This document shows, piece by piece, positions 8,476 through 49,207 of a DNA stretch of 64,000 nt (position 1 is its first letter; every line of letters starts with the position of its first letter). The DNA is taken from the NCBI GenBank assembly GCA_041644975.1, contig JBAZQX010000005.1, positions 13,068-77,067 of the forward strand. The letters are read 5' to 3'. The notes beneath the pieces were generated by a model. That model worked only from the letters and a program-made list of their open reading frames with translations, did no database searches and was not told the DNA's origin. The position numbers were made by a program, and so were the translations under genes. The DNA is from Candidatus Doudnabacteria bacterium. GTDB lineage: Bacteria; Patescibacteriota; JAQUNI01.

Positions 8476-9186
8476 ATGACCATCAAAAAGAAAACCTGGC
8501 CAGCGTATTTTGAAAAAGTCGCGAGCGGCAAAAAGAAATTTGATTTGCGCTTAGCGGATTTCAAAATCAAAGAAGGTGATATTTTAATCTTGGAAGAATG
8601 GGATCCTAAAACTCAAAAATACACCGGGCGCAAGATTAAAACGCGCGCGACCTATGTCTTGAAAACAAAAGACTTGCCTTTCCATTCAAAAGCAGAAATC
8701 AAAAAATACGGTCTGCAGGTAATTCAAATTGAACTTACTAAAACGCAAAATCTTGCGTCTTCACATCATTATTTCCCCCGCGGCGTAGAAATAGTCAATG
8801 TCGCGATTATCAAAAATAAAAAAGGTGAAATCCTGATTGCCCGCTCGCCCAAATGGTCAAACAAATGGACTCTCCCCGGCGGCCATTTGGAGCCCGACGA
8901 AAATCTCTTAGCTAGCGCGCAAAGAGAGGCGGAAGAAGAAACAGGTCTCAAAGTAAAACCAGTTAAGATCATTGATTTCAATGAGCTTATTAACTCTCCA
9001 GATTTTCACCGTCCCAGCCACTTTGTTTATTATGATTGTCTCTTTGAATTTGTCAGGGGCAAACTGAAATTAGAAAAACACGAATTATCTGAAGCCAAGT
9101 GGGTGCTGCCAGAAAAGGCGTTAAAACTTGACTTAGCTGACGGCTGTCGCAAAAGTATTCAGAATTATCTAAAATTAAAGATATAG
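8476..9186 (+). CDS. ASCH-like (DUF3850) domain fused to NUDIX hydrolase
   Basis: N-terminal WPAYFEKVASGKKKFDLRLADF...GDILIL (DUF3850/ASCH). C-terminal Nudix box GGHLEPDENLLASAQREAEEETGL. Confidence 0.7.
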   Translation: MTIKKKTWPAYFEKVASGKKKFDLRLADFKIKEGDILILEEWDPKTQKYTGRKIKTRATYVLKTKDLPFHSKAEIKKYGLQVIQIELTKTQNLASSHHYFPRGVEIVNVAIIKNKKGEILIARSPKWSNKWTLPGGHLEPDENLLASAQREAEEETGLKVKPVKIIDFNELINSPDFHRPSHFVYYDCLFEFVRGKLKLEKHELSEAKWVLPEKALKLDLADGCRKSIQNYLKLKI

Positions 9187-9389: not shown

Positions 9390-9731
9390 ATGGCAAAAAA
9401 ATTATACGTCGGTGGTTTGTCCTACAATACCACTGAGGAAACCTTGAAGGATTTCTTTTCTCAAGCAGGCGCGGTAGAATCAGCGATGATTATCACAGAC
9501 AAAATGTCTGGCCGCTCCAAGGGATTCGGATTCGTGGAAATGGTAAGCGACGAAGACGCGCAGAAAGCGGTTGAAACTTTAAATGGCCAAGAGTTGGACG
9601 GACGCAGCCTAAGAATAGATGAAGCAAGACCAATGAGCGATCGGCCTCGGAGAAGCGGCGGCGGCTTTGGTGGTGGACGCGGAGACGACAGAGGCGGATA
9701 TGGCGGCGGCAACAGAGACCGTGGTTGGTAA
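9390..9731 (+). CDS. RRM-domain RNA-binding protein with RGG/glycine-rich tail
   Basis: RNP-1 KGFGFVEM and RNP-2 LYVGGL. C-terminal GGGFGGGRGDDRGGYGGG. Confidence 0.85.
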   Translation: MAKKLYVGGLSYNTTEETLKDFFSQAGAVESAMIITDKMSGRSKGFGFVEMVSDEDAQKAVETLNGQELDGRSLRIDEARPMSDRPRRSGGGFGGGRGDDRGGYGGGNRDRGW

Positions 9732-9754: not shown

Positions 9755-9790
9755 AAAAATCTTGTCCCTCGCGAGGGACAAGATTTTTGT
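9755..9790 (+). terminator. rho-independent terminator
   Basis: aaaaatcttgtccctcgcgagggacaagattttt. Perfect GC stem plus T-run. Confidence 0.75.
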
Positions 9791-9812: not shown

Positions 9813-12797
9813 TTATTTATTGCTTAATTTGGCGAATAAAAAAAATAAAGTAATAAACAGCAAGCCCATTAGAAACGGCGCTGATGATGAAATTAAATTC
9901 CGCTTGCCGGGCTTGAATCTTTTCAGTAAAAGAGAATTAGACACAACCGAAACCGAACTCAAAGCCATTGCCAGCCCGGCTAACTCCGGCTTTAAAATGA
10001 GTCCCGCCCAGGCCAACATTCGAGCCGCGATAGGAATACCAACAATATTATAAAACAAGGCGAAAAACATATTCTGCTTGATTTTAGACACTGTCGCGCG
10101 GCTTAAATCAATGGCTGTCAAAACACTTCTCAAATCGTTTTTAACAATAACAATACCGCCGGTTTCCATTGCCACATCAGCGCCCGAACCCATTGCCACG
10201 CCCAAATCCGCCTGCGCTAAGGCCGGAGCGTCATTGATGCCGTCGCCCACAAAAGCGACAGAACGCTTGCGCGGAGAATTTTTAATTTTTTCTCTGTAAT
10301 CTTCAATTCGTTTCCAATCCGTGATTTTTAATGACGACACCTTAACTCCTTTTTGCAAAAGTTCAACAACTATAGCCTTGTGTTGCGGCAAAACTTCGGC
10401 TAAAACATTTTTAATACCCGCTTGCTTGGCTATTGCCTCGGCGGTTCGGCGATTATCACCGGTAATCATAAAGGTTATTAAACCGCGCTTATGCAAGGCG
10501 CTCACCGTGTCTACGGCGCTTTCTTTAATAATGTCCGCCACTGCCACAATACCTAAAATTTCTTTGTCCGTTGACAAAATCATCGTTGTTTTTCCCTGCT
10601 CCTCCAAGCGCCGCGCTTTTCGTTCAATATTTTCCACATTTAACCCGACAACATCGGCCATTAGTTTGCGATTGCCAAAATAATATTTTTGCCCATCAAT
10701 TTCGCCTTCAACACCGTGTCCGGGAATAGCTCTAAAACCAGCCACCTCTTTTATAAGCGCGGATTCTTCTTGCGCGTATTTAACTATAGCTTCAGCCAAT
10801 GGATGCTCGGACATTTTTTCTAAACTGGCGGCTATGCCGAGCGCTTCATCTTCATCGCCAAACCCGATGCCAATTATATCAGTCACTTGGGGTTTGCCCT
10901 GAGTTAAAGTGCCAGTTTTATCAAAAACAATCATCTTTATTTTGCAGGCAGCTTCCAGCGGCTCGCCCCCTTTAATTAAAATCCCTTGCTCCGCTCCCTT
11001 ACCAGTCCCAACCATAATAGCGGTTGGAGTGGCTAATCCCAAGGCGCACGGGCAAGCGATCACAATCACAGCGGTAAAAGCCATCAAAGCAAAAGCCAAG
11101 TTTGAACCAAGCAGAAAAAACCAAACAAGAAAAGTCAAAACAGCGATACCAAGCACAATCGGCACAAAGCGACTGGAAATTTTATCCGCAAACATCTGAA
11201 TAGGCGCTTTGGAACCCTGGGCGTCTTCAATAAACCGGATAATTTGAGCTAAAGCGGTTTCTTTACCCACCCTGGTCGCTCTAAATTCAAAACTGCCGTG
11301 TTTATTCATAGTAGCGCCAATAACAACATCTCCGACATTTTTTTCCACTGGTATGCTTTCCCCGGTAAGCATTGATTCGTCCACTGAAGAATTGCCCTTG
11401 ACAATTTCGCCGTCAACCGGTATTTTTTCGCCAGGCCGAACCAACACTATGTCTCCCTTTACCACCTGCTCAATCGGAATATCTTCCTGCTTGCCGTCAC
11501 GAAAAACGCGGGCGGTTTTTGGCTGAAGGCCCATTAGTTTTTTAATGGCTTCAGAAGTTTTTCCCTTGGCTTTGGCTTCAAGCCATTTGCCCAAAAGCAC
11601 AAATGAAATTAGAAAAGCCGCTGTTTCAAAATATAAATCAGGTATTTTTTCCCCCATCAAACCAATTAAACTGCCCTTAGAAAAAACATAGCTAAGATAA
11701 GCGAACAAACTGTAAAAAAACGCCGCACTTGTACCAATGGCAATCAAACTGTCCATATTGAATGTTTTCATCCGCAAACTACTCCACGTTCCCTTGTAAA
11801 ACCCGAAACCAATAATGAATTGCACAGGTAAAGTCAAAAGCAAAGAAATAATGCCGATGTATGGCATAACCGCCTTGCCCGGCAAGAAAGGCAAAAATTC
11901 CAGAAGCATAAAATAAAACATCGGCAAGCTCAAGCCGAGTCCCCACAAAAACTTCTTCCAATAATTTTTTATTTCTTTAACTCTTCTTATTTTCTCCGCT
12001 TCAGGGTGGTCTGAACGGTATAGTTCCGCTCTATAACCCGCTTTTTTGACAACATCTAACAAAGCGGCTAAATTAGTCAGCGAACTGTCATAAATTACAC
12101 GCGCTCTGGCTGAAGCAAAATTGACATTGGCTGAAATAATCCCCGGCGCTTTCCGCAGGGCCTTTTCTATCAAGCCGGCGCAAGAAGAACAATGCATACC
12201 ATCTATACTTAATTGCGCTTGTTCTTCCTTTTTCTTAGCCGACAATGGAGGTGAAGCAACCGAAACCGCCTGGCTAGGATATAAAACCAAATCAGCGGCA
12301 TCTTGCTCCGAAGGGCCAAGCAAACGAAAAAGTTTGCCTATGTTGACGGAGCGCAAAAGATTATCCGCCAACTGCTCTATGTTTTTTTGGCCCTGTGGAA
12401 CTTCAATTTCTCCTCTGCGCTGGCGCTTGATTTTGCCTTGAAAATTCGGCTGATTGCCGCTATGACCAAAATTACCTTCTGCTTCCGTAGAGGACTCAAG
12501 CCGAATCTTCAAAGGCGAATTGCTGTCAATCTTTTTTTTTAGCCAAATTGAAGTTGATGATTCTCGCTGGATTTCTTTTGGCTCACGGCCTGTTATTTCC
12601 GCTTCGTAGCCGGCCTTCTTAACCGCCTCTATCAGTAAAGCGTCAGAAACATTTTCATCCGCTTTTACCTCTCCTTTACCCAAAGCGTAATCCACTTTGG
12701 CATATTTCACGCCAGTCAAAGAAGACAGTTCAGCCTCTACGAGTTTTTTGCAAGAAGCGCAATGCATGCCATGAATTTTCAGAATAATTTTTTGCAT
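9813..12797 (-). CDS. copA: copper-translocating P1B-type ATPase with two N-terminal HMA domains
   Basis: Two GMHCxSC metal-binding motifs. CPC in TM6, [15 protein letters not shown]. Confidence 0.9.
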
Positions 12798-12849: not shown

Positions 12850-13722
12850 TTATTGTGATTCCACTACAATCATACCAGAGATCATCCCCATCCAACAACT
12901 AAATTGATATTTTCCTGGTGTTGTTGGGGTGAATTCTTTCACGCTTACTTGACCAGGAGTAAGACTAATCTGGCCGGTAAATAAACCATTGGCAATAATA
13001 GCATTTGTGCAACCGCTTGTACCCGTGTCGGTAATTTCCCATCTTACCGGAATCCCTGCTTTTAGCTTAAAATAATTTGGTTCATACCCCGACGAAGATG
13101 CATCCATCTTGATAATTTGCTTAGTGGGGGTTGGAGGAGGAACGGTCTCTGTTTTTATTCCCCCATTCTGATTATTTGGTATAGAAGGTTGAGGTGGAGA
13201 TTGGGTTGGGTTTCGACCCTGATATTGATCGCCAGCGATTTGATCTTGGTTATTTGTGGTTCCTTTATTTGGTAGTACGACGTTGCCATTATCTATCTGC
13301 GGAGATTTAGGTTGTGCTGGAGGTGTGGAGTAATTAGAATCTTTATTTTGACTTCCTAAGGTTTGATTGTTTTGCAAAGGACAACCAAGTAAATCTTGCA
13401 ATTCTTCAAATGTTCTGTAACCCTCATAAACCTGTCCATTAATGGCAAATGCGGGAACACCTGTAAATTTATGCTTTACAGGGCCAATAGCAGCATTGAT
13501 TTTATTTATTTTAATTCCCAGAGCTTCAATTTTATTAATTGTTCCTTCTCCCTTTACTCTGTTGCACCATTCGCATTGGTTAAGATAATAGAATGTTATT
13601 TCTTTCGTCTTACATTGGGGTGCTGCGTTTAACTGGGAATTTGATTTTTTGGATTTAGTTAAAATCCAAATTCCACCCCCCAAAATTATAATCACTGTAA
13701 AAATTAGAATAATTTTTTTCAT
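12850..13722 (-). CDS. membrane-anchored thioredoxin-like (CxxC) protein with C-terminal cupredoxin-like putative metal-binding domain
   Basis: N-terminal TM. CEWC motif in a glutaredoxin-like segment. Pro/Gln-rich linker. The C-terminal domain YxPNYFKLKAGIPVRWEITDTGTSGCTN...FSCWMGM is duplicated in the gene at 14372-16093. Confidence 0.55.
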   Translation of the reverse strand: MKKIILIFTVIIILGGGIWILTKSKKSNSQLNAAPQCKTKEITFYYLNQCEWCNRVKGEGTINKIEALGIKINKINAAIGPVKHKFTGVPAFAINGQVYEGYRTFEELQDLLGCPLQNNQTLGSQNKDSNYSTPPAQPKSPQIDNGNVVLPNKGTTNNQDQIAGDQYQGRNPTQSPPQPSIPNNQNGGIKTETVPPPTPTKQIIKMDASSSGYEPNYFKLKAGIPVRWEITDTGTSGCTNAIIANGLFTGQISLTPGQVSVKEFTPTTPGKYQFSCWMGMISGMIVVESQ

Positions 13723-13725
13723 TTT

Positions 13726-14235
13726 TTACTTGGTTATGAAATAAAAACTTAAACTAAATATCAAAAGTACTCCAATGGCAATTAGCACTTTCTGGTGCGA
13801 AAGGTAAATTTTTCCTTGATTTCGTTTTCTTAGGAATTTATCCAGATACGGAGCAATTATAAGTAATATACTTCCCAAAATTATTCCGAAAATAATTTTG
13901 TTGATTCCCAAAATAGTATTATAAGCATTAAAAAATTTTGACCAGAATAGAGAAAGGAAAACCATAAGGTAAGAAAATAAGGCAACAACAAATAGTTGCA
14001 ATGGAATTCGTTTATTCCACTTTTTTAGAAAATTATTAATAAGTATCACGCTTGAAAGGGTAAATCCCCCAAGCCAAAGACCGACAATGGTGTCATCCAC
14101 TCCCAGCCAACGGAATAGACCTGTAAAAGCTCCTGTTGCTATTATGCATAATGGGCAAAATGCAAATGCTTTAAGAGGCAGCGATAAAAGCATCAAAACT
14201 GGTAAAACATAAATGACTAAATAGCCTTTCTTCAT
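13726..14235 (-). CDS. small polytopic membrane protein with FCPLC motif
   Basis: Four predicted TM helices; Cys pair in TM1. No family recognised. Confidence 0.5.
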   Translation of the reverse strand: MKKGYLVIYVLPVLMLLSLPLKAFAFCPLCIIATGAFTGLFRWLGVDDTIVGLWLGGFTLSSVILINNFLKKWNKRIPLQLFVVALFSYLMVFLSLFWSKFFNAYNTILGINKIIFGIILGSILLIIAPYLDKFLRKRNQGKIYLSHQKVLIAIGVLLIFSLSFYFITK

Positions 14236-14371
14236 CTTTATTGTTTGCTTAATAATCCGTCAATGGTTTGCCCAAAGGTGTCATATGGCAGGGCTCCGCT
14301 AATTAGCTGGCCATTGATATCGGACATTGGATAGGAACCTTCCTTAGTTATGTCAGTCTTGAACGGCTCTA

Positions 14372-16093
14372 TCATTGCGCTCCACAACTTGTGCCACTCC
14401 CGCCACAACCACATCCCTTAGCTCCAGAAGGAATAATCTGATTATTATCTGTCGCAGAGCCAGGAACAGAAGGTTGTGAATTTACCCCCTGATCCACAAC
14501 CTCAATCACTCCCGATACCATTCCCATCCAGCAACTAAATTTGTATTTCCCGGACTTTGTGGGTGTGAATTCCTTAATGCTTATCTTCCCAGGGGTTAAA
14601 TTAATTTGGCCATCAAATAGACCTCGGGAAATAACGGCATTTGTGCAGCCACTTGTGCCAGTATCTGTGATTTCCCACCTTACGGGCACCCCAGATTTTA
14701 CCTTGAAATAATTTGGTTTATATCCAGAAGAAGACGCATCCATTTTGATAACTTGTTTGCCATTAACCAAAGGTGGTAGTCCGCTATCGCTGCTAGAGGC
14801 ACTCGTAGATTGGGAAGAAGTAGCTTTTACATCACTAAAACTAAAAAATCCCAAGACATTCATTTGGGAATTAATATTATAAAAAGCAAAAAATAAAACC
14901 AAAACACCCGCGACCTTAAGGAACTTTTCTGACCGCCCTGGTTTTTGAAAAAATTTCACGCTTGATAAACCGATGGTTAGTAGCATTGGTAATGTCCCAA
15001 GCGCGAAAAAGAGCATAATTAATCCTCCTTGAATGGGGTTTCCCGATATCAGGGCAATGCTTTGAGCAGTAATAGTGAAACCGCAGGGCAAGAAAAAAGT
15101 AAAAGCTCCCATTAAAAAAGGCATATAACGTCCTTGGAAATTTTTTTCATCAGCCACATATCTGGTGATGAATTTTGGCATTGTAAACTGAAACCTGCGC
15201 AAGGCCTTTACGCCCAACATTTGCAAAGCCAGCACGAACATCATTAAGGAAACTGCTAAGACGAGGACAGAGGTAAATTTGAGCGATAATTGTAATTTAC
15301 TACCCACTGCACCCAGTACTGCGCCTAAAATCGTATAAGAAATGATCCTACCGATATTGAACATCAAATGAGGTCGAAGTTTTGTGAAAAACGAATCCTT
15401 TTCTGAATATGCTTCCAGCCATTGTTTGGACATTGAAAGGACCAAACCGCCTACGAGCGCTGCACAACTTGAGACTCCGGCCAAAATACCGAAAACAAAA
15501 AAAGCAGGCAAAGAAGATGAAGAGTTAATATTAATCAACCCCGATAAGCCTGATTTTTTTAAAATTAGAAAACCGATAATAAGAAGGAGGGCGGCTCCAG
15601 CGATCGTGAAAAAATCTTTTACTTTTGATCCCTTTGCCTCTATGGGTTGGTCAAAAAAAATATAGTTGTCTTTTTGAAAAATTTTATTTAACTTTTCTGC
15701 TGAAGATCTTTCACCGGTATATTTAATAAACACTTGGCCTTTGTTAGTTGACGCTTCTACAGCTTCTATTGAAGGCAAACTTAATAACTTTTTTTCAATC
15801 AAAATTTCACAAGAAGCGCAATGCATTCCTTGAACAAAGTATACGTGTTCCTGACTAGTACTTTTTGCTGAAACAGCAGATTTTTCTCTAATAACATATC
15901 CCAATTTCTGAATTGCTTCAAAAATTTTATCTTGAAAAATTATTGTATCATCAAATTCTACCCGAGTTTCCCCACTTGCCTCATTAATATTGATATCTTT
16001 AACACCTTTTAAGACATCAACTTTTGTTTCAACTAGACTTTTATCATTAGGAGAATGAATACCCTCAATGTGGATTTTTATTGTTTTCAACAT
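14372..16093 (-). CDS. HMA domain - DsbD_2-like membrane domain - cupredoxin-like domain protein with Cys-rich tail
   Basis: GMHCASCEILIEKKL (HMA). TM Cys motifs SSCAALVGG and FLPCGFT (DsbD_2/CcdA-like). C-terminal domain about 85% identical to that of 12850-13722. Tail GCGCGGSGTSCG. Confidence 0.6.
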   Translation of the reverse strand: MLKTIKIHIEGIHSPNDKSLVETKVDVLKGVKDININEASGETRVEFDDTIIFQDKIFEAIQKLGYVIREKSAVSAKSTSQEHVYFVQGMHCASCEILIEKKLLSLPSIEAVEASTNKGQVFIKYTGERSSAEKLNKIFQKDNYIFFDQPIEAKGSKVKDFFTIAGAALLLIIGFLILKKSGLSGLININSSSSLPAFFVFGILAGVSSCAALVGGLVLSMSKQWLEAYSEKDSFFTKLRPHLMFNIGRIISYTILGAVLGAVGSKLQLSLKFTSVLVLAVSLMMFVLALQMLGVKALRRFQFTMPKFITRYVADEKNFQGRYMPFLMGAFTFFLPCGFTITAQSIALISGNPIQGGLIMLFFALGTLPMLLTIGLSSVKFFQKPGRSEKFLKVAGVLVLFFAFYNINSQMNVLGFFSFSDVKATSSQSTSASSSDSGLPPLVNGKQVIKMDASSSGYKPNYFKVKSGVPVRWEITDTGTSGCTNAVISRGLFDGQINLTPGKISIKEFTPTKSGKYKFSCWMGMVSGVIEVVDQGVNSQPSVPGSATDNNQIIPSGAKGCGCGGSGTSCGAQ

Positions 16094-16233
16094 AAAGATT
16101 GATTATTTAAAATTATCTACTACAGAGTATAGTAGGTAATCAAATCTCCGTCAAGAAGGAGTTATCCACAGCCTAAAATATTTCAAAAATATCAAGGGAA
16201 ATAAATTAAAATACCCATTTTTTTAAAAGGGCT

Positions 16234-17274
16234 TCATTCCATTCCTTGGCAAGAATGTTTATCTGAACGATTAGCCATTTTACAAATATTCCCCTCACCC
16301 ATATTGCATTGATTTATCTGGGGCTGGCCGGATGAGCAAGAAAAATTAGCAGGGCTGGTTAAAACAGATGATTTTGAGTGAAGGATAACATTAAAGACAA
16401 AAAAGAATAGAAAAATAAAGGCAATATTTAGAATCAATTTGGGGGTGAAAGTTTTTATCTGCGGCGAATAATCATTATCTGCTAATTTATTTATTCTTTC
16501 GTCTAGGACAGCGCCGAAGAAAGGAACCGCTAACTTATTTTGCAAAATAAGTTGCTTTTGCCACCCCATCACTTTGTACAAAGCTTGGATTAGGGGTATT
16601 TTATTCCGGAAACCATTTGTAGCATATTCGTCAGCCGCCAATTCGGATAAGATTGAATATTGTTTGGATAATGATTTGAGACCAGGTATGAAGAATAGAA
16701 TTTTATTAAGAATTTTAATAAAAAATAATTTAATTGGATCATAAACAGAAAGATGATATTGCTCATGCAATAAAACAGCGGTTAATTCACTTGTGGATAA
16801 TTTCTGTATCAAGGCAGTGGAGATGCAAATTTTTGGTCTGAAAAAATTAAAACAAAAGATAAACGATCCTCGGGTCTTAGTTTCAATAATTTTATTTTCT
16901 AAATTGACAGATTGGGCGACCCTTTTTAATTTGGGTGAGAGGACTAATTTTTTGTTTTTAAGGCTCATTGCGATAAATTGCTTAGTTGCTTTATTTGTTT
17001 TGATAAGGATTGTGATTAAAAAAAACAAGAGCGTTAATATCCCTATTCCCGCAAAAATTAAAGAAGAAAAAATGAAAGGGTGATTTGCGAAAGAGAGATG
17101 ATGAGTGCAGCCGCAACTTGCTTGAAGACGGCCTAGAAAAGACTGCCAAATTAAGAGTAGTTTAGGATAAAGGTTCCATCCCAATATCAAAAAGAGAGCC
17201 AGAAAGGTGAAACCCAAGCCCAAGAATTGATAGAAAATTTTTTTGTTTTTTCTTTGATAATAATGTGTGTCCAC
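16234..17274 (-). CDS. BlaR1/MecR1-like M56 family metallopeptidase signal transducer
   Basis: Polytopic protein with HEQYHLSVYDP (HExxH in the M56 context). C-terminal Cys-rich extracytoplasmic tail CSSGQPQINQCNMGEGNIC...HSC. Confidence 0.65.
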   Translation of the reverse strand: MDTHYYQRKNKKIFYQFLGLGFTFLALFLILGWNLYPKLLLIWQSFLGRLQASCGCTHHLSFANHPFIFSSLIFAGIGILTLLFFLITILIKTNKATKQFIAMSLKNKKLVLSPKLKRVAQSVNLENKIIETKTRGSFIFCFNFFRPKICISTALIQKLSTSELTAVLLHEQYHLSVYDPIKLFFIKILNKILFFIPGLKSLSKQYSILSELAADEYATNGFRNKIPLIQALYKVMGWQKQLILQNKLAVPFFGAVLDERINKLADNDYSPQIKTFTPKLILNIAFIFLFFFVFNVILHSKSSVLTSPANFSCSSGQPQINQCNMGEGNICKMANRSDKHSCQGME

Positions 17275-17280
17275 GGCTTT

Positions 17281-17667
17281 TTATTTTATTTTTTTTAGTT
17301 TAAGCCGCCAATTTTCCAAATTTTTCAAATCGCTTGTCTCTACAACATCAATAAATTGCGCCACAGCCACTTCACCGAAAGATTTAATTAAATCGTTAAT
17401 CGCCCTTCTAGAAACAGAGGCCGCGAAATCATCCCTGTTCTGGCTTGGCCAATAGATATAAGCGCCATCCTGTCCCTGTTTTCGTTTAAGGATTTTTTTA
17501 TTGGATAGCCGTAACATTACAGTCATCACGGTGGTGTAAGCGATCTTTTTCTTTTTTCTTAATTTCTCCACCACTTCCCGAACGGAGACATTGCTATTAG
17601 ACCAGACTATATCCATAATTTCCGCTTCCAACGCACCCAACGACCATTTAAGCTTATTTTTTTTCAT
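17281..17667 (-). CDS. BlaI/MecI/CopY family transcriptional repressor
   Basis: Winged-helix penicillinase-repressor fold of about 128 aa (YTTVMTVMLRLSNKKIL). Immediately upstream of the M56 gene. Confidence 0.8.
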   Translation of the reverse strand: MKKNKLKWSLGALEAEIMDIVWSNSNVSVREVVEKLRKKKKIAYTTVMTVMLRLSNKKILKRKQGQDGAYIYWPSQNRDDFAASVSRRAINDLIKSFGEVAVAQFIDVVETSDLKNLENWRLKLKKIK

Positions 17668-17688
17668 AAATTTGATTATAATAATCTA

Positions 17689-17701
17689 CTACATATTGTA
17701 G
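17689..17701. promoter_or_regulatory. candidate CopY/BlaI operator (CTACA-tat-TGTAG, cop-box-like TACAnnTGTA)
   Basis: Inverted repeat 20 nt upstream of the repressor start codon. Confidence 0.4.
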
Positions 17702-17914
17702 CAAAATTTTTTGAGAGTTGCAAATAGACTATACATATAGGTTACATTATAATCTCAAAGGCTAACTAAATCCGTGTCAAGGGTATCCTTTAAAAATATC
17801 GACAAAAATCAAAATGTATATTAGGATAATAATGCTCTTTTCTAATAGCCATTATAATGTTTAATTTAAATTAGGCTCAAATTGAATTGAACTTATCGAA
17901 AAGGAGAGAGAAAG

Positions 17915-18592
17915 ATGGTTGAAGTTAAAAATGGACTAGGTTATGGTTCTATTGTTCCTGACGGACAAATCGTCTTTTTCAGAGACGAAAGGAAGGGACC
18001 TTTCACCCAAGGCGCAGAATTATTCTGGCCCGAAGAAAAAATAGTATTGCATGATTTGTTGGAAAAGGAAAAAGACAAGCAGAGCGAACCCAAGAAACGC
18101 GTGAAAAATAAGTTAAAGATAATCTGCGTGATTCCCTTAGACTCCGAAGTGTGGTCAATATTAAGCGCGTCGGATTTAGCAGAAAACAAAACAGGTTGGC
18201 AAGATCTCTTTTTGGCAGTCTTGCAAGCTGGGGTGATCTTCGGGATTGACAAAGCGATCGGGTTTTACGGTCGTCACGTTTCAGAAGAAAGATACCAACT
18301 AGGCGATACTGTGAGAGAGGAGGATATTGTCTTTCTGGTTTCTGATATTGACGGCAATGAAGTTCAGATCCTTCTGCCAAATCAAAGTATCCCGAAGGAA
18401 AACTGGTCTATAGCAAGCAGTGTTATTATCCCGGAAAGAGCTATTGAGCTCTTCCAAAATAATATTGGATTACCGATTTCGCAACTACTCCTCTTAATCC
18501 TTCAAATAGGCGAAAATTTCGGATTCGGGGAACAATGCATTTTAAATAGCTACTTTAGAGCCAATAACCCAGTATTAGGACTCGGTTTCTAA
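17915..18592 (+). CDS. hypothetical protein (no recognised domain)
   Basis: 225 aa ORF followed by a hairpin terminator (gactcggtttctaaaatatctgcaccgagtctttttt). Confidence 0.5.
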   Translation: MVEVKNGLGYGSIVPDGQIVFFRDERKGPFTQGAELFWPEEKIVLHDLLEKEKDKQSEPKKRVKNKLKIICVIPLDSEVWSILSASDLAENKTGWQDLFLAVLQAGVIFGIDKAIGFYGRHVSEERYQLGDTVREEDIVFLVSDIDGNEVQILLPNQSIPKENWSIASSVIIPERAIELFQNNIGLPISQLLLLILQIGENFGFGEQCILNSYFRANNPVLGLGF

Positions 18593-47840: not shown

Positions 47841-49025
47841 TTACTCTCCCACTTTTACCTTATAAAGATGATCCTCTGCGCCATCCGCTAAATCTTCCGG
47901 GTCGTTATCCCCTTCAATGGCAACCGTAAATTCATAACTTCGCAGGGACAATTTTTGATACTGATAACTATATCTTGATGCCAAGGGGTCCTCCGGAACC
48001 TTAATAACGTAATCAGGGGAAAGGTCGGTTAAATTATCGGGGAAAAACCCATTGTCATCATAATATAACTCCAAGGCCACTTCTAAAGCTTCCAAATCAT
48101 TTTTGCGAATTTTATCCCTCTCCGCGGGAGTCGTTGTCGCTCCTTGTTGCTGCTCTTCAGGCGTAGGTTCTAATTTTGCTTGTCGCCCACGGGCAGGGTC
48201 ATAACCTTTCTCCACTTCCGTCCCATCATTATAAGAATCGCCGTCCGTGTCCGATAGGAAAGGATTGGTTGTGTAATAATACTCCTGGCTATTATCTAAA
48301 CCGTCTCCATCCGGATCTTGATGAGCATCCCCGGGATCCAAAGGATTTAAATTATTTTGTTTTTCCCAACCATCCGGTAACCCGTCTTGATCCGAGTCTG
48401 CCTCTTTCAAATTAGTGCCTAAAGCTTCTTCCTCTTGATCGGTTAATCCATCACTATCGGAATCCTGATTGGGGGAAGGTGGCGGAGTGACGGGCAGATC
48501 AGGTTGTTCCAAGGGGACAGTCTCCTCTCCCTCTGATGTATCGGGATTCTCTGGAAGCACTGGCGTAATAGCGGGAGAAGTATCCGGCTCTGCGGAAGGA
48601 TTTTGAAACCAATTAAAATATACAAAAACACCTCCCGCGCCCAACACTAAAATAATCAAAATAATAGCAAGCTTCTTAGAAAAAACTTGTCTTTTCTGAG
48701 GCGCTGCCGCCACTGGTGATAGGGTAGAGGCGACAGGGCTTAATTCTGAAGGATTCCGCGCACCTCCTGTCCCGCGATACTCCGAGGGCATTACTTTACT
48801 CTCCTGCTCTGAAGAGGCAAAAAAATCCTTCCTTCCTGCCACGCCAGAGGATCCCTCTTCTGGAGAAAAAATCTCCCCTAACCCTTCCCGAGGCTCACTA
48901 AAAATGGGATTGCTGTTTTCCCCTCTCACTTCGGCAAGAGGGTTAGCTCCATTATTATTTACTTGGAAGGGAGGAGTGTTGTTGTCTTCTGGAAGAGGCA
49001 GATTATTGGGTGGTGGTGCGGGCAT
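47841..49025 (-). CDS. membrane-anchored Pro-rich protein with thrombospondin-type-3-like calcium-binding repeats
   Basis: TM LAIILIILVLGAGGVFVYF. Four D-x-D-x-DG-x-x-D repeats (DSDGDGLTDQEE, DSDQDGLPDGWE, DPDGDGLDNSQE, DTDGDSYNDGTE). Confidence 0.55.
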   Translation of the reverse strand: MPAPPPNNLPLPEDNNTPPFQVNNNGANPLAEVRGENSNPIFSEPREGLGEIFSPEEGSSGVAGRKDFFASSEQESKVMPSEYRGTGGARNPSELSPVASTLSPVAAAPQKRQVFSKKLAIILIILVLGAGGVFVYFNWFQNPSAEPDTSPAITPVLPENPDTSEGEETVPLEQPDLPVTPPPSPNQDSDSDGLTDQEEEALGTNLKEADSDQDGLPDGWEKQNNLNPLDPGDAHQDPDGDGLDNSQEYYYTTNPFLSDTDGDSYNDGTEVEKGYDPARGRQAKLEPTPEEQQQGATTTPAERDKIRKNDLEALEVALELYYDDNGFFPDNLTDLSPDYVIKVPEDPLASRYSYQYQKLSLRSYEFTVAIEGDNDPEDLADGAEDHLYKVKVGE

Positions 49026-49207
49026 AATAAGAATACAAAATGTAGAATGTAAAAATGATGCTTTATGTCATCCTTAAGCGGAACTTAAGTGAAACAAAGG
49101 ATCCCGTTTTTAGCTAACCCGACCGATGGATTCTTCGCTTCGCTCAAGAACAACGTTTCGCGTCAATTTTAATCTTTCATTTTGCGTTTGATATTTGTTT
49201 TTTGGAT

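Follow-up and report, generated by a model that had tools for sequence, protein, structure and literature searches.

A BlaI-family repressor and its partner M56 membrane protease as a candidate copper-triggered switch for a copper-detoxification operon in Candidatus Doudnabacteria

A candidate copper switch

In a 64,000-nucleotide stretch of the genome of a Candidatus Doudnabacteria bacterium (assembly GCA_041644975.1, contig JBAZQX010000005.1, positions 13,068 to 77,067; hereafter the window), we analyzed a minus-strand gene cluster that begins with a repressor of the BlaI/MecI/CopY family and a membrane zinc protease of family M56 and ends with the copper ATPase CopA. The best-supported reading, which we hold with some but not with strong confidence, is that the pair serves as a copper-triggered proteolytic derepression switch for a copper-detoxification operon. 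Without copper, a repressor dimer would occupy two operators, O1 at its own promoter and O2 at that of the effector genes. A rise in copper would activate the M56 metalloprotease that is its partner, which would cut the repressor at or next to Q104-F105, in the C-terminal dimerisation helix, and the loss of the repressor would derepress both promoters. CopA would then export Cu(I), two membrane-tethered CupA-type domains would bind it, and the DsbD_2/thioredoxin-like pair would probably provide reducing power outside the cell that keeps the outer thiols reduced. Copper itself would be sensed outside the cytoplasm through thiolate and thioether ligands of the protease, located in a CGCxxH loop and in a tail with four Cys, often as CxM; this outer loop and tail as the copper sensor is the more tentative part of the proposal, to which we give somewhat less than an even chance. 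The evidence is computational throughout, with promoters called as consensus matches only and membrane topologies predicted from hydropathy and the positive-inside rule.

An earlier note, made from the letters of the window, had listed six minus-strand open reading frames (ORFs) with domain labels; an ORF check found all six in the order and at the positions given there, and Pfam/TIGRFAM-type profile scans bore out the labels of the six proteins. Read in the direction of transcription, the genes encode the repressor of 128 amino acids (aa) (17281-17667; PF03965 and direct reading), the M56 protease of 346 aa, without a beta-lactam sensor domain (16234-17274; PF05569), a 573-aa HMA-DsbD_2-CupA-like fusion protein (14372-16093; domain scans), a 169-aa polytopic membrane protein with an AFCPxC motif (13726-14235; no Pfam family), a 290-aa thioredoxin (Trx)-like/CupA-like protein (12850-13722; weak TIGR02196, Cupredoxin_1) and CopA, a P1B-1 Cu(I)/Ag(I)-type ATPase (9813-12797; TIGR01511). 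The repressor and M56 genes are separated by 6 nucleotides (nt), and a sequence scan placed a terminator-like minus-strand hairpin with a 15-bp stem (9755-9788) at the end of the operon. Related loci were gathered by a genome scan with an alignment of 11 closer sequences, and those homologues that carry labels agree with an attribution to Patescibacteria. Record titles of many of the related metagenome-assembled genomes were unreliable, and the occurrence of Patescibacteria-type loci in third-party annotation (TPA) bins titled 'uncultured Gammaproteobacteria bacterium' (L002, L004-L006, L010, L011, L015 and others) is an apparent labelling artefact.

The repressor

The repressor matched Penicillinase_R (PF03965) at 88.9 bits over residues 10-119 (cut-off 22.6, 3.9e-25), which settled in the affirmative the profile check proposed in the earlier note, and its score with the CopY/TcrY equivalog model TIGR02698 was 44.3 bits, below the cut-off of 121.95. 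Direct reading of the protein found no Cys, no His and only four Met, which makes a metal site in it unlikely; direct copper sensing by the repressor was accordingly rejected as unlikely, given that it has neither Cys nor His. The claim that it lacks the C-terminal metal-binding tail of CopY therefore holds, there being no Cys in the whole protein, and none of 55 repressor homologues from related loci carried a C-terminal CxC...CxC motif. The missing metal tail, the score below the equivalog cut-off and a different operator spacing led us to discard CopY as the identity of this protein.

The best solved relatives were M. tuberculosis BlaI (2g9w), S. aureus BlaI (1sd4) and MecI (1okr). In the alignment, the scissile bond of BlaI (N101-F102) coincides with Q104-F105 of the window repressor (encoded at 17353-17358). 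The Phe aligned with F102 (P1') is kept in most of the 55 homologues, and the surrounding VAVAQF(I/V)D motif is conserved in close relatives; we regard Q104-F105 as the putative scissile bond of the repressor.

Operators and transcription units

O1 is a perfect CTACA-N3-TGTAG palindrome (CTACATATTGTAG, 17689-17701) and the only perfect match to this box in the window, where 3 matches at up to one mismatch were observed against 0.57 expected. This is the cop-box-like inverted repeat described in the earlier note, and the palindrome is real; its distance to the repressor ATG is 21 nt. O1 overlaps the -35 hexamer and the spacer of the candidate promoter P1 (TTGCTA-18-TATAAT, 17675-17704, minus strand). 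Because the -10 hexamer of P1 ends 7 nt before the repressor ATG, the repressor-protease transcript from P1 is probably leaderless or nearly so, and no Shine-Dalgarno sequence was visible ahead of the repressor gene (17668-17704).

A related second box, missed in the first reading of the sequence, is O2 (CTATACTCTGTAG on the minus strand, 16120-16132, one mismatch), which lies in the spacer between the M56 and HMA-DsbD_2 genes, 101 nt past the M56 stop and 26 nt before the ATG of the HMA-DsbD_2 gene. It sits in a 26-nt direct repeat shared with O1 and is overlapped by the -10 hexamer of the candidate promoter P2 (TTGACG-17-TATACT, 16126-16154, minus strand). Since O2 thus overlaps promoter-like hexamers of its own in this spacer, the cluster reads as two transcription units, each with its operator, ending at the hairpin at 9755-9788. 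A scan of the whole window against Rfam returned no match, which argues that no riboswitch or RNA regulator is involved. A third box, ATACAAAATGTAG at 49033-49045 (one mismatch), was judged to be probably a chance match, 0.57 being expected per window; it lies 7 nt upstream of a gene for a TSP3-repeat protein (47841-49025).

Both operators recur in relatives. Sixty-two related loci with 888 kb of sequence were surveyed for CTACA-N3-TGTAG, one mismatch being allowed. The expected places, defined as the last 80 nt ahead of the repressor start and the first 300 nt past the protease stop (22.1 kb in total), contained 29 boxes and the other 810 kb contained 22, a 48-fold enrichment. With up to two mismatches, 19 of 34 related loci had a box between -16 and -48 relative to the repressor start, compared with about 2.5% of random 100-nt segments, and the distance of -21 to -24 was also kept in other loci. 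A box 26-98 nt past the M56 stop was present in 20 related loci. The extended form of the operator is TACTACA-N3-TGTAGTA, with a 3-nt spacer (TACA-N3-TGTA), N2 versions being essentially absent at the conserved positions. L066, a 93%-related locus, was 100% identical to the window over the 65 nt leading up to the repressor ATG and had diverged farther upstream, a pattern that reads as a footprint; its O2 spacer was 95% identical.

A perfect CTACAGCGTGTAG box together with a repressor-M56 pair was also found in Meiothermus/Calidithermus isolates (L053, L054, L056; position 11151), with an ArsR-like gene and a P-type ATPase gene near the box. These cultured Deinococcota isolates could be tractable hosts for a study of the operator.

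The protease and its candidate copper ligands

The M56 protein matched PF05569 at 44.2 bits (cut-off 31, 1.9e-11), had an M48 match too, and scored 20.3 bits against the cut-off of 400 with blaR1_generic (NF000326). It ends 41 residues past its last transmembrane helix, and the penicillin-binding sensor domain is absent; beta-lactam sensing, and with it a BlaR1/MecR1 identity for this protein, was rejected on account of the missing sensor domain. Eleven residues were invariant in 33 M56 relatives (C54, C56, C141, C150, H170, E171, H174, E211, D215, C313 and C323), and these include the gluzincin motifs H170-E-x-x-H174 and E211-x-x-x-D215, HExxH and ExxxD being the gluzincin motifs of BlaR1 (PMC9834060). 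The CGCxxH...H loop is encoded at 17080-17115, the HEQYH motif at 16753-16767 and the four-Cys tail at 16237-16356. An exact-sequence lookup of the protein returned no record, and the family numbered 253 representatives below 1e-30 at the 50% cluster level.

An AlphaFold 2 (AF2) model of the protease had a predicted local distance difference test (pLDDT) score of 79. Its best fold matches were S. aureus BlaR1 (8exp/8exq) with a probability of 1.0, at a template modelling (TM) score of only 0.39, followed by Ste24/ZMPSTE24. A search of the M56 profile against Protein Data Bank sequences reached only an HtpX fragment and not BlaR1, which was recovered by fold alone. Three transmembrane helices were predicted, with the N-terminus and the protease domain inside and the loop (residues 37-66) and tail (residues 307-346) outside; the CGCxxH loop joins the first two helices, and by Pfam register it occupies the position of the extracellular loop before the last N-terminal helix. 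The tail contains four Cys, in agreement with the earlier description of an M56 protease with a Cys-rich, extracytoplasmic tail, the placement of which is predicted.

The candidate ligands are well conserved. All 69 close M56 relatives had CxC in the predicted outer loop, with a His five residues on in 47 of them, and exactly four Cys occurred within the last 50 residues in 53 of the 69. The Cys+2 position of tail sites was Met in 29%, the Met background being 4.3%, and the rest of the tail was hypervariable. Cys in both loop and tail were present in remoter subgroups as well (Daviesbacteria type, L048, L049), and a mycobacterial homologue (L057) had no Cys tail. Two further invariant Cys, C141 and C150, are predicted to be cytoplasmic and adjoin the substrate-binding strand of the protease. 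That the beta-lactam sensor has been replaced in this clade by a minimal extracytoplasmic thiolate/thioether copper receptor, composed of a CxC-x2-H loop and a four-Cys/CxM tail, is in our judgement possible but short of probable; such a receptor would mean that the CxC chemistry of CopY has moved from the repressor to the protease.

Related loci and an apparent regulator swap

The repressor gene lay directly upstream of the M56 gene in 55 of 58 related loci, and the other three end at contig edges. The earlier note had raised the question of whether such pairs stand next to P1B-ATPases in other Patescibacteria, which proved true in part: of the 25 closest loci, 11 had CopA in the 10 kb that were retrieved. 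Two architectures were seen. In architecture A (the window, L066, L015-L019, L027), the post-M56 box is followed immediately by the HMA-DsbD_2-CupA gene and then by CopA. In architecture B (L002-L013), what comes after the box is a long cluster of genes for Cys-rich proteins that are uncharacterised, including a CEYCC protein, a 95-aa protein, a double thioredoxin, CxxC membrane proteins and DUF1573 proteins, and in L006, L009 and L012 this cluster continues into CupA and CopA genes. In many of these loci, the two genes next to the box (e.g. L006:11108-12183) specify one protein of about 250 aa (CEYCCGA...ACGCAHS) and one of about 95 aa; LPNMVGGC closes both, and neither had a Pfam family.

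The effector genes also occur under another regulator. In other Patescibacteria, the AFCPxC gene belongs to a cassette of HMA-DsbD_2-cupredoxin, HMA-Trx/DsbA, AFCPxC, 175-aa, FtrD-like and CopA proteins, and a CsoR-family gene (PF02583) headed this cassette in five of six independent contexts (L063, L065, L067, L068, L070), whereas the repressor-M56 pair heads the copper cassette in the window and in L066. The CsoR-headed cassettes share with the window, in the same order, the HMA-DsbD_2-cupredoxin protein, a Trx/DsbA-type protein, the AFCPxC protein and CopA, and differ from it in having a one-component cytoplasmic Cu(I) sensor instead of a repressor-protease pair. CsoR proteins are cytoplasmic Cu(I) sensors, and the one CsoR that was translated (L063) has the C...H-x3-C Cu(I) ligand pattern. 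Elsewhere, then, CsoR leads the effector cassette seen in the window, so the repressor-protease pair holds the position of an established copper-sensor family, and comparison of the loci indicates that the regulator has been swapped between CsoR and the pair at the same cassette. The CsoR-headed cassettes (e.g. L063:2944-10141) additionally contain an HMA-Thioredoxin_4/DsbA fusion, a 175-aa protein without a family and an FtrD-like protein, none of which is present in the window.

Effector proteins

The 573-aa and 290-aa proteins contain a repeated domain (14489-14779 and 12853-13143, respectively), and Cupredoxin_1 (PF13473) was matched in both. The two copies are 73% identical over 97 aa (76% over 256 nt), so that the figure of about 85% given in the earlier note was too high. 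A phmmer search against solved sequences matched CupA (2mry/4f2e, 1.4e-6) as well as pneumococcal CopA's CupA-like N-terminal metal-binding domain (4f2f, 1.1e-4), and an AF2 model of the copy in the 290-aa protein (pLDDT 95.8) had Cu(I)-bound CupA (4F2E) as its top Foldseek match (TM score 0.87, root-mean-square deviation 1.2 Å). Four residues, C38, C76, M78 and M80 (C...CxMxM), were invariant in 21 domain homologues and align with the first Cys and the C-x-M-x-M of CupA, whose binuclear Cu(I) site consists of a bis-thiolate S1 and a Met-rich S2 (PMC7558416). Sequence and model thus point to a CupA-type Cu(I) chaperone domain in which C...CxMxM would correspond to the binuclear site of CupA. 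The suggestion that the repeat is a copper-binding module gains a conserved ligand set and, with it, a name as a CupA-like domain. A GCGCGG..C tail closes many CupA-like homologues, including the 573-aa protein. CupA has been described as restricted to a few streptococci (PMC7558416); CupA-type domains were common among Patescibacteria, fused to DsbD_2 and thioredoxin-like proteins.

The 573-aa protein comprises two HMA domains, a DsbD_2 domain (PF13386, 120.6 bits, 1.1e-34) and Cupredoxin_1. Its first HMA domain (residues 1-75) is degenerate, with CxxC lost (GIHSPNDKS), and the second keeps GMHCASC. Seven hydrophobic segments correspond to one extra transmembrane segment plus the DsbD_2 core, in which each half has one Cys in a hydrophobic segment, Cys210 (SSCA) and Cys337 (LPCG); the predicted orientation has both HMA domains on the inside, with the CupA-like domain and the tail on the outside. 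The 290-aa protein consists of an N-terminal membrane anchor, a glutaredoxin/thioredoxin-like domain with CEWC (the part with the weak TIGR02196 match), a low-complexity linker and the CupA-like domain. For the 169-aa AFCPxC protein, a Pfam scan and a homologue search found no named family; its unnamed family has an invariant AFCPxC...RWLGVDD signature, and the gene always lay between a Trx/DsbA-type gene and CopA (L063, L065, L067, L068, L069, L070). These comparisons mark it as a conserved member of the copper cassette, and it could be a membrane thiol-disulfide or copper-handling partner. CopA scored 606.8 bits with TIGR01511 (cut-off 397) and has two ferredoxin-like HMA domains together with CPC (582), DKTGT (626), YN (916) and MALSS (MxxSS, 944); CPC, YN and MxxSS, in transmembrane helices 4, 5 and 6 respectively, form the Cu(I)/Ag(I) pump signature in the standard P1B classification.

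Flanking genes

Past the operon terminator, on the opposite strand, lie genes for a glycine-rich RRM-type RNA-binding protein (9390-9731) and for a DUF3850-NUDIX fusion (8476-9186), both unrelated to the copper finding. On the other side, a 225-aa ORF without a Pfam match (17915-18592) is divergent from the repressor gene, with more promoter-like sites between the two.

Comparison with known systems

The closest precedent, by analogy, is PetR/PetP of Synechocystis PCC 6803, in which the BlaI/CopY-type factor PetR is degraded by the sensor-less M48/M56 protease PetP only with copper (10.1101/2020.07.31.226407; PNAS 2021). Judged from the published description of PetR/PetP, both systems have a BlaI/CopY-family factor without the cysteines of CopY, an M48/M56 membrane protease without a beta-lactam sensor domain, a regulator gene placed ahead of the protease gene in tight coupling with it, a 3-nt operator spacing (GACA-N3-TGTC for PetR, TACA-N3-TGTA in the window) and a Phe conserved at the BlaI cleavage position. 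They belong to different phyla and differ in their targets, PetR acting on the plastocyanin/cytochrome c6 switch, also as an activator, whereas the target in the window is a copper-efflux/chaperone cassette. PetP has four predicted transmembrane helices and the window M56 three; the petRP mRNA is not copper-regulated, whereas the window pair has O1 on its own promoter. The ligands proposed for PetP are two Met in a 14-residue loop, in contrast to the CGCxxH...H loop and four-Cys/CxM tail of the window M56, and the equivalence of the two loops was inferred from the Pfam register and the published description of PetP.

With BlaR1/BlaI and MecR1/MecI of S. aureus (PMC9834060), the window pair shares a cytoplasm-facing gluzincin HExxH...ExxxD on a transmembrane scaffold, BlaR1 being the top structural match, and operators that contain TACA/TGTA. 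The winged-helix dimer of BlaI is cut at N101|F102, which aligns with Q104|F105 in the window, and the EL1 signalling loop of BlaR1 lies, like the loop of the window M56, between the helices before the protease domain; EL1 is bound by the sensor domain and freed on acylation (PMC9834060). Unlike BlaR1 and MecR1, the window M56 has no penicillin-binding domain, scores far below the equivalog cut-off and has one fewer N-terminal helix. The gene order is reversed as well, and the proposed signal is a metal instead of a beta-lactam.

The CopY-regulated cop operons of Firmicutes, in particular copY-cupA-copA of S. pneumoniae (PMC5772342, PMC5646241, PMC7558416), resemble the window in having an autoregulating BlaI-family repressor at a TACA...TGTA palindrome, with a CopA ATPase and a CupA-type cupredoxin chaperone, anchored in the membrane, under its control. 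CopY, however, binds Cu(I)/Zn(II) by its own CxCx4CxC tail and works with no protease, whereas the window repressor has no Cys and CxC is found on its partner protease. The canonical cop box TACAnnTGTA has a 2-nt spacer, as opposed to 3 nt in the window operators. Pneumococcal CupA is cytoplasmic and feeds a cupredoxin-type domain of CopA, whereas the CupA-like domains of the window are predicted to lie outside and its CopA has ordinary HMA domains. Finally, the atypical BlaIR systems of M. tuberculosis (Rv1846c/Rv1845c), M. abscessus and P. aeruginosa (PvmSR) also have a protease without a sensor domain, and the window repressor has M. tuberculosis BlaI as its best relative of solved structure; they differ in responding to unknown signals and in having regulons for beta-lactamase, metabolism or virulence (10.64898/2026.08.03.742534).

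Alternative readings

The regulated proteolysis suggested in the earlier note, as against a repressor with its own C-terminal metal cysteines or a protease gene absent from orthologous loci, is supported by the 0 of 55 CxC tails and the 55 of 58 paired genes, and the repeated domain of the effectors, for which a lack of conserved Cys/Met/His ligands had been considered, has its invariant C...CxMxM. The conserved dual operators, the outer Cys motifs and the replacement of CsoR add to this support. The operon is linked to copper by its Cu-type CopA, by the CupA domain, by the 11 loci, among the 25 closest, that have CopA within 10 kb, and by the HMA-DsbD_2-CupA gene that follows the box in L015-L019.

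Several observations weigh against a copper-triggered proteolytic switch of this kind. Past the post-M56 box, roughly half of the closest loci have a gene that is not a copper gene, and among the loci of architecture B a CsoR-family gene precedes the CupA/CopA genes in L006 and a CsoR match occurs in L012; the pair of architecture B may sense copper-linked thiol or envelope stress and not copper itself. The box of the thermophilic Deinococcota Meiothermus/Calidithermus precedes a 179-aa gene on the other strand without an evident copper link, which suggests that the operator belongs to the repressor clade more broadly and restricts the copper assignment to the Patescibacteria-type clade. As to the protease, its topology is a prediction from hydropathy and the positive-inside rule, and the pLDDT of the Cys tail in the AF2 model is below 50, so that a metal site or a loop-tail contact cannot be modelled. 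The extracytoplasmic Cys could simply be structural disulfides, and sensing could be internal, given the invariant and cytoplasmic C141 and C150.

The alternative that survives best, unlikely as we consider it, is that the switch reads extracytoplasmic thiol-disulfide stress, with the six outer Cys forming reversible disulfides and copper being one of several oxidants. Thiol-redox parts are indeed abundant in the regulon (DsbD_2, Trx/Grx-like and DsbA-like proteins), and in architecture B the first regulated genes encode Cys-rich proteins of no known family and a double thioredoxin, with a separate CsoR-family gene before CopA (L006, L012). In the window and L066, however, the pair directly replaces CsoR before the same HMA-DsbD_2-CupA...CopA cassette; the enrichment of Met near the tail Cys as CxM is better suited to Cu(I) binding, for which a thioether is apt, than to disulfide chemistry; and PetP, the closest studied analogue, requires copper in vitro.

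A second possibility, to which we assign a small probability, keeps copper as the signal and moves its detection into the cell: Cu(I) would bind C141/C150, or be delivered there by the HMA domains, and the outer Cys would be structural. The CsoR that the pair replaces senses cytoplasmic Cu(I), and C141/C150 are not only invariant but kept in Daviesbacteria-type and Chloroflexota relatives. The Chloroflexota relatives, however, keep these two Cys without having the operator or a linkage to copper genes, whereas the outer CxC and four-Cys pattern is what tracks the copper-linked clade, and in BlaR1 as in the proposal for PetP the signal enters by the equivalent outer loop.

It is highly improbable, in our view, that the protease is a constitutive turnover or quality-control enzyme and that the repressor responds, to copper or to something else, by another route, such as a chaperone partner. 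BlaR1 cleaves itself spontaneously and BlaI is cut to some extent even when no signal is present (PMC9834060), and the signals of the sensor-less BlaR homologues of Mycobacterium and Pseudomonas are unknown (10.64898/2026.08.03.742534); against this, a metal site in the repressor is unlikely (no Cys, no His, four Met), and a sensory role is indicated by how strictly the genes are paired and how strongly the outer Cys motifs are conserved. Least probable of all is an inducer other than copper among the thiophilic ions (Ag, Cd, Zn or Hg). HMA domains and GCGC-type Cys-rich tails do bind several soft metals, and MerTP and ZntA models gave weak matches to the HMA regions, but CopA scores above the cut-off of the Cu subfamily and has the CPC/YN/MxxSS motifs specific for Cu(I)/Ag(I), the ligands of the CupA domain make up a Cu(I) site, and the regulator exchanged for the pair shows the Cu(I) ligands typical of CsoR; Ag(I) might be a co-inducer besides copper.

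Implications

Copper-triggered proteolysis of a BlaI/CopY-type regulator has so far been shown once, for the cyanobacterial switch between photosynthetic electron carriers, and the mode of copper sensing by PetP is unknown (10.1101/2020.07.31.226407), as are the signals of sensor-less BlaR homologues in other bacteria (PMC10141476; 10.64898/2026.08.03.742534); according to a 2023 review, the role of BlaR/PetP homologues in heterotrophs is still to be elucidated. The literature searched contained no account of copper efflux under the control of a BlaI/M56 pair. The family found in the window ties a sensor-less pair to a classical copper-efflux cassette through conserved operators and a natural swap with CsoR, and it supplies a short, specific list of candidate ligands for mutation in a heterologous reporter. 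It also shows CupA-type domains, described from a few streptococci, as frequent modules in Patescibacteria, and offers a first picture of metal-stress regulation in these reduced-genome bacteria. If true, the loop and tail receptor would be the first defined metal-sensing site of any BlaR/PetP-type protease, and it would point to the detection of metals, and not of antibiotics, as the older and more widespread function of sensor-less BlaR-BlaI pairs.

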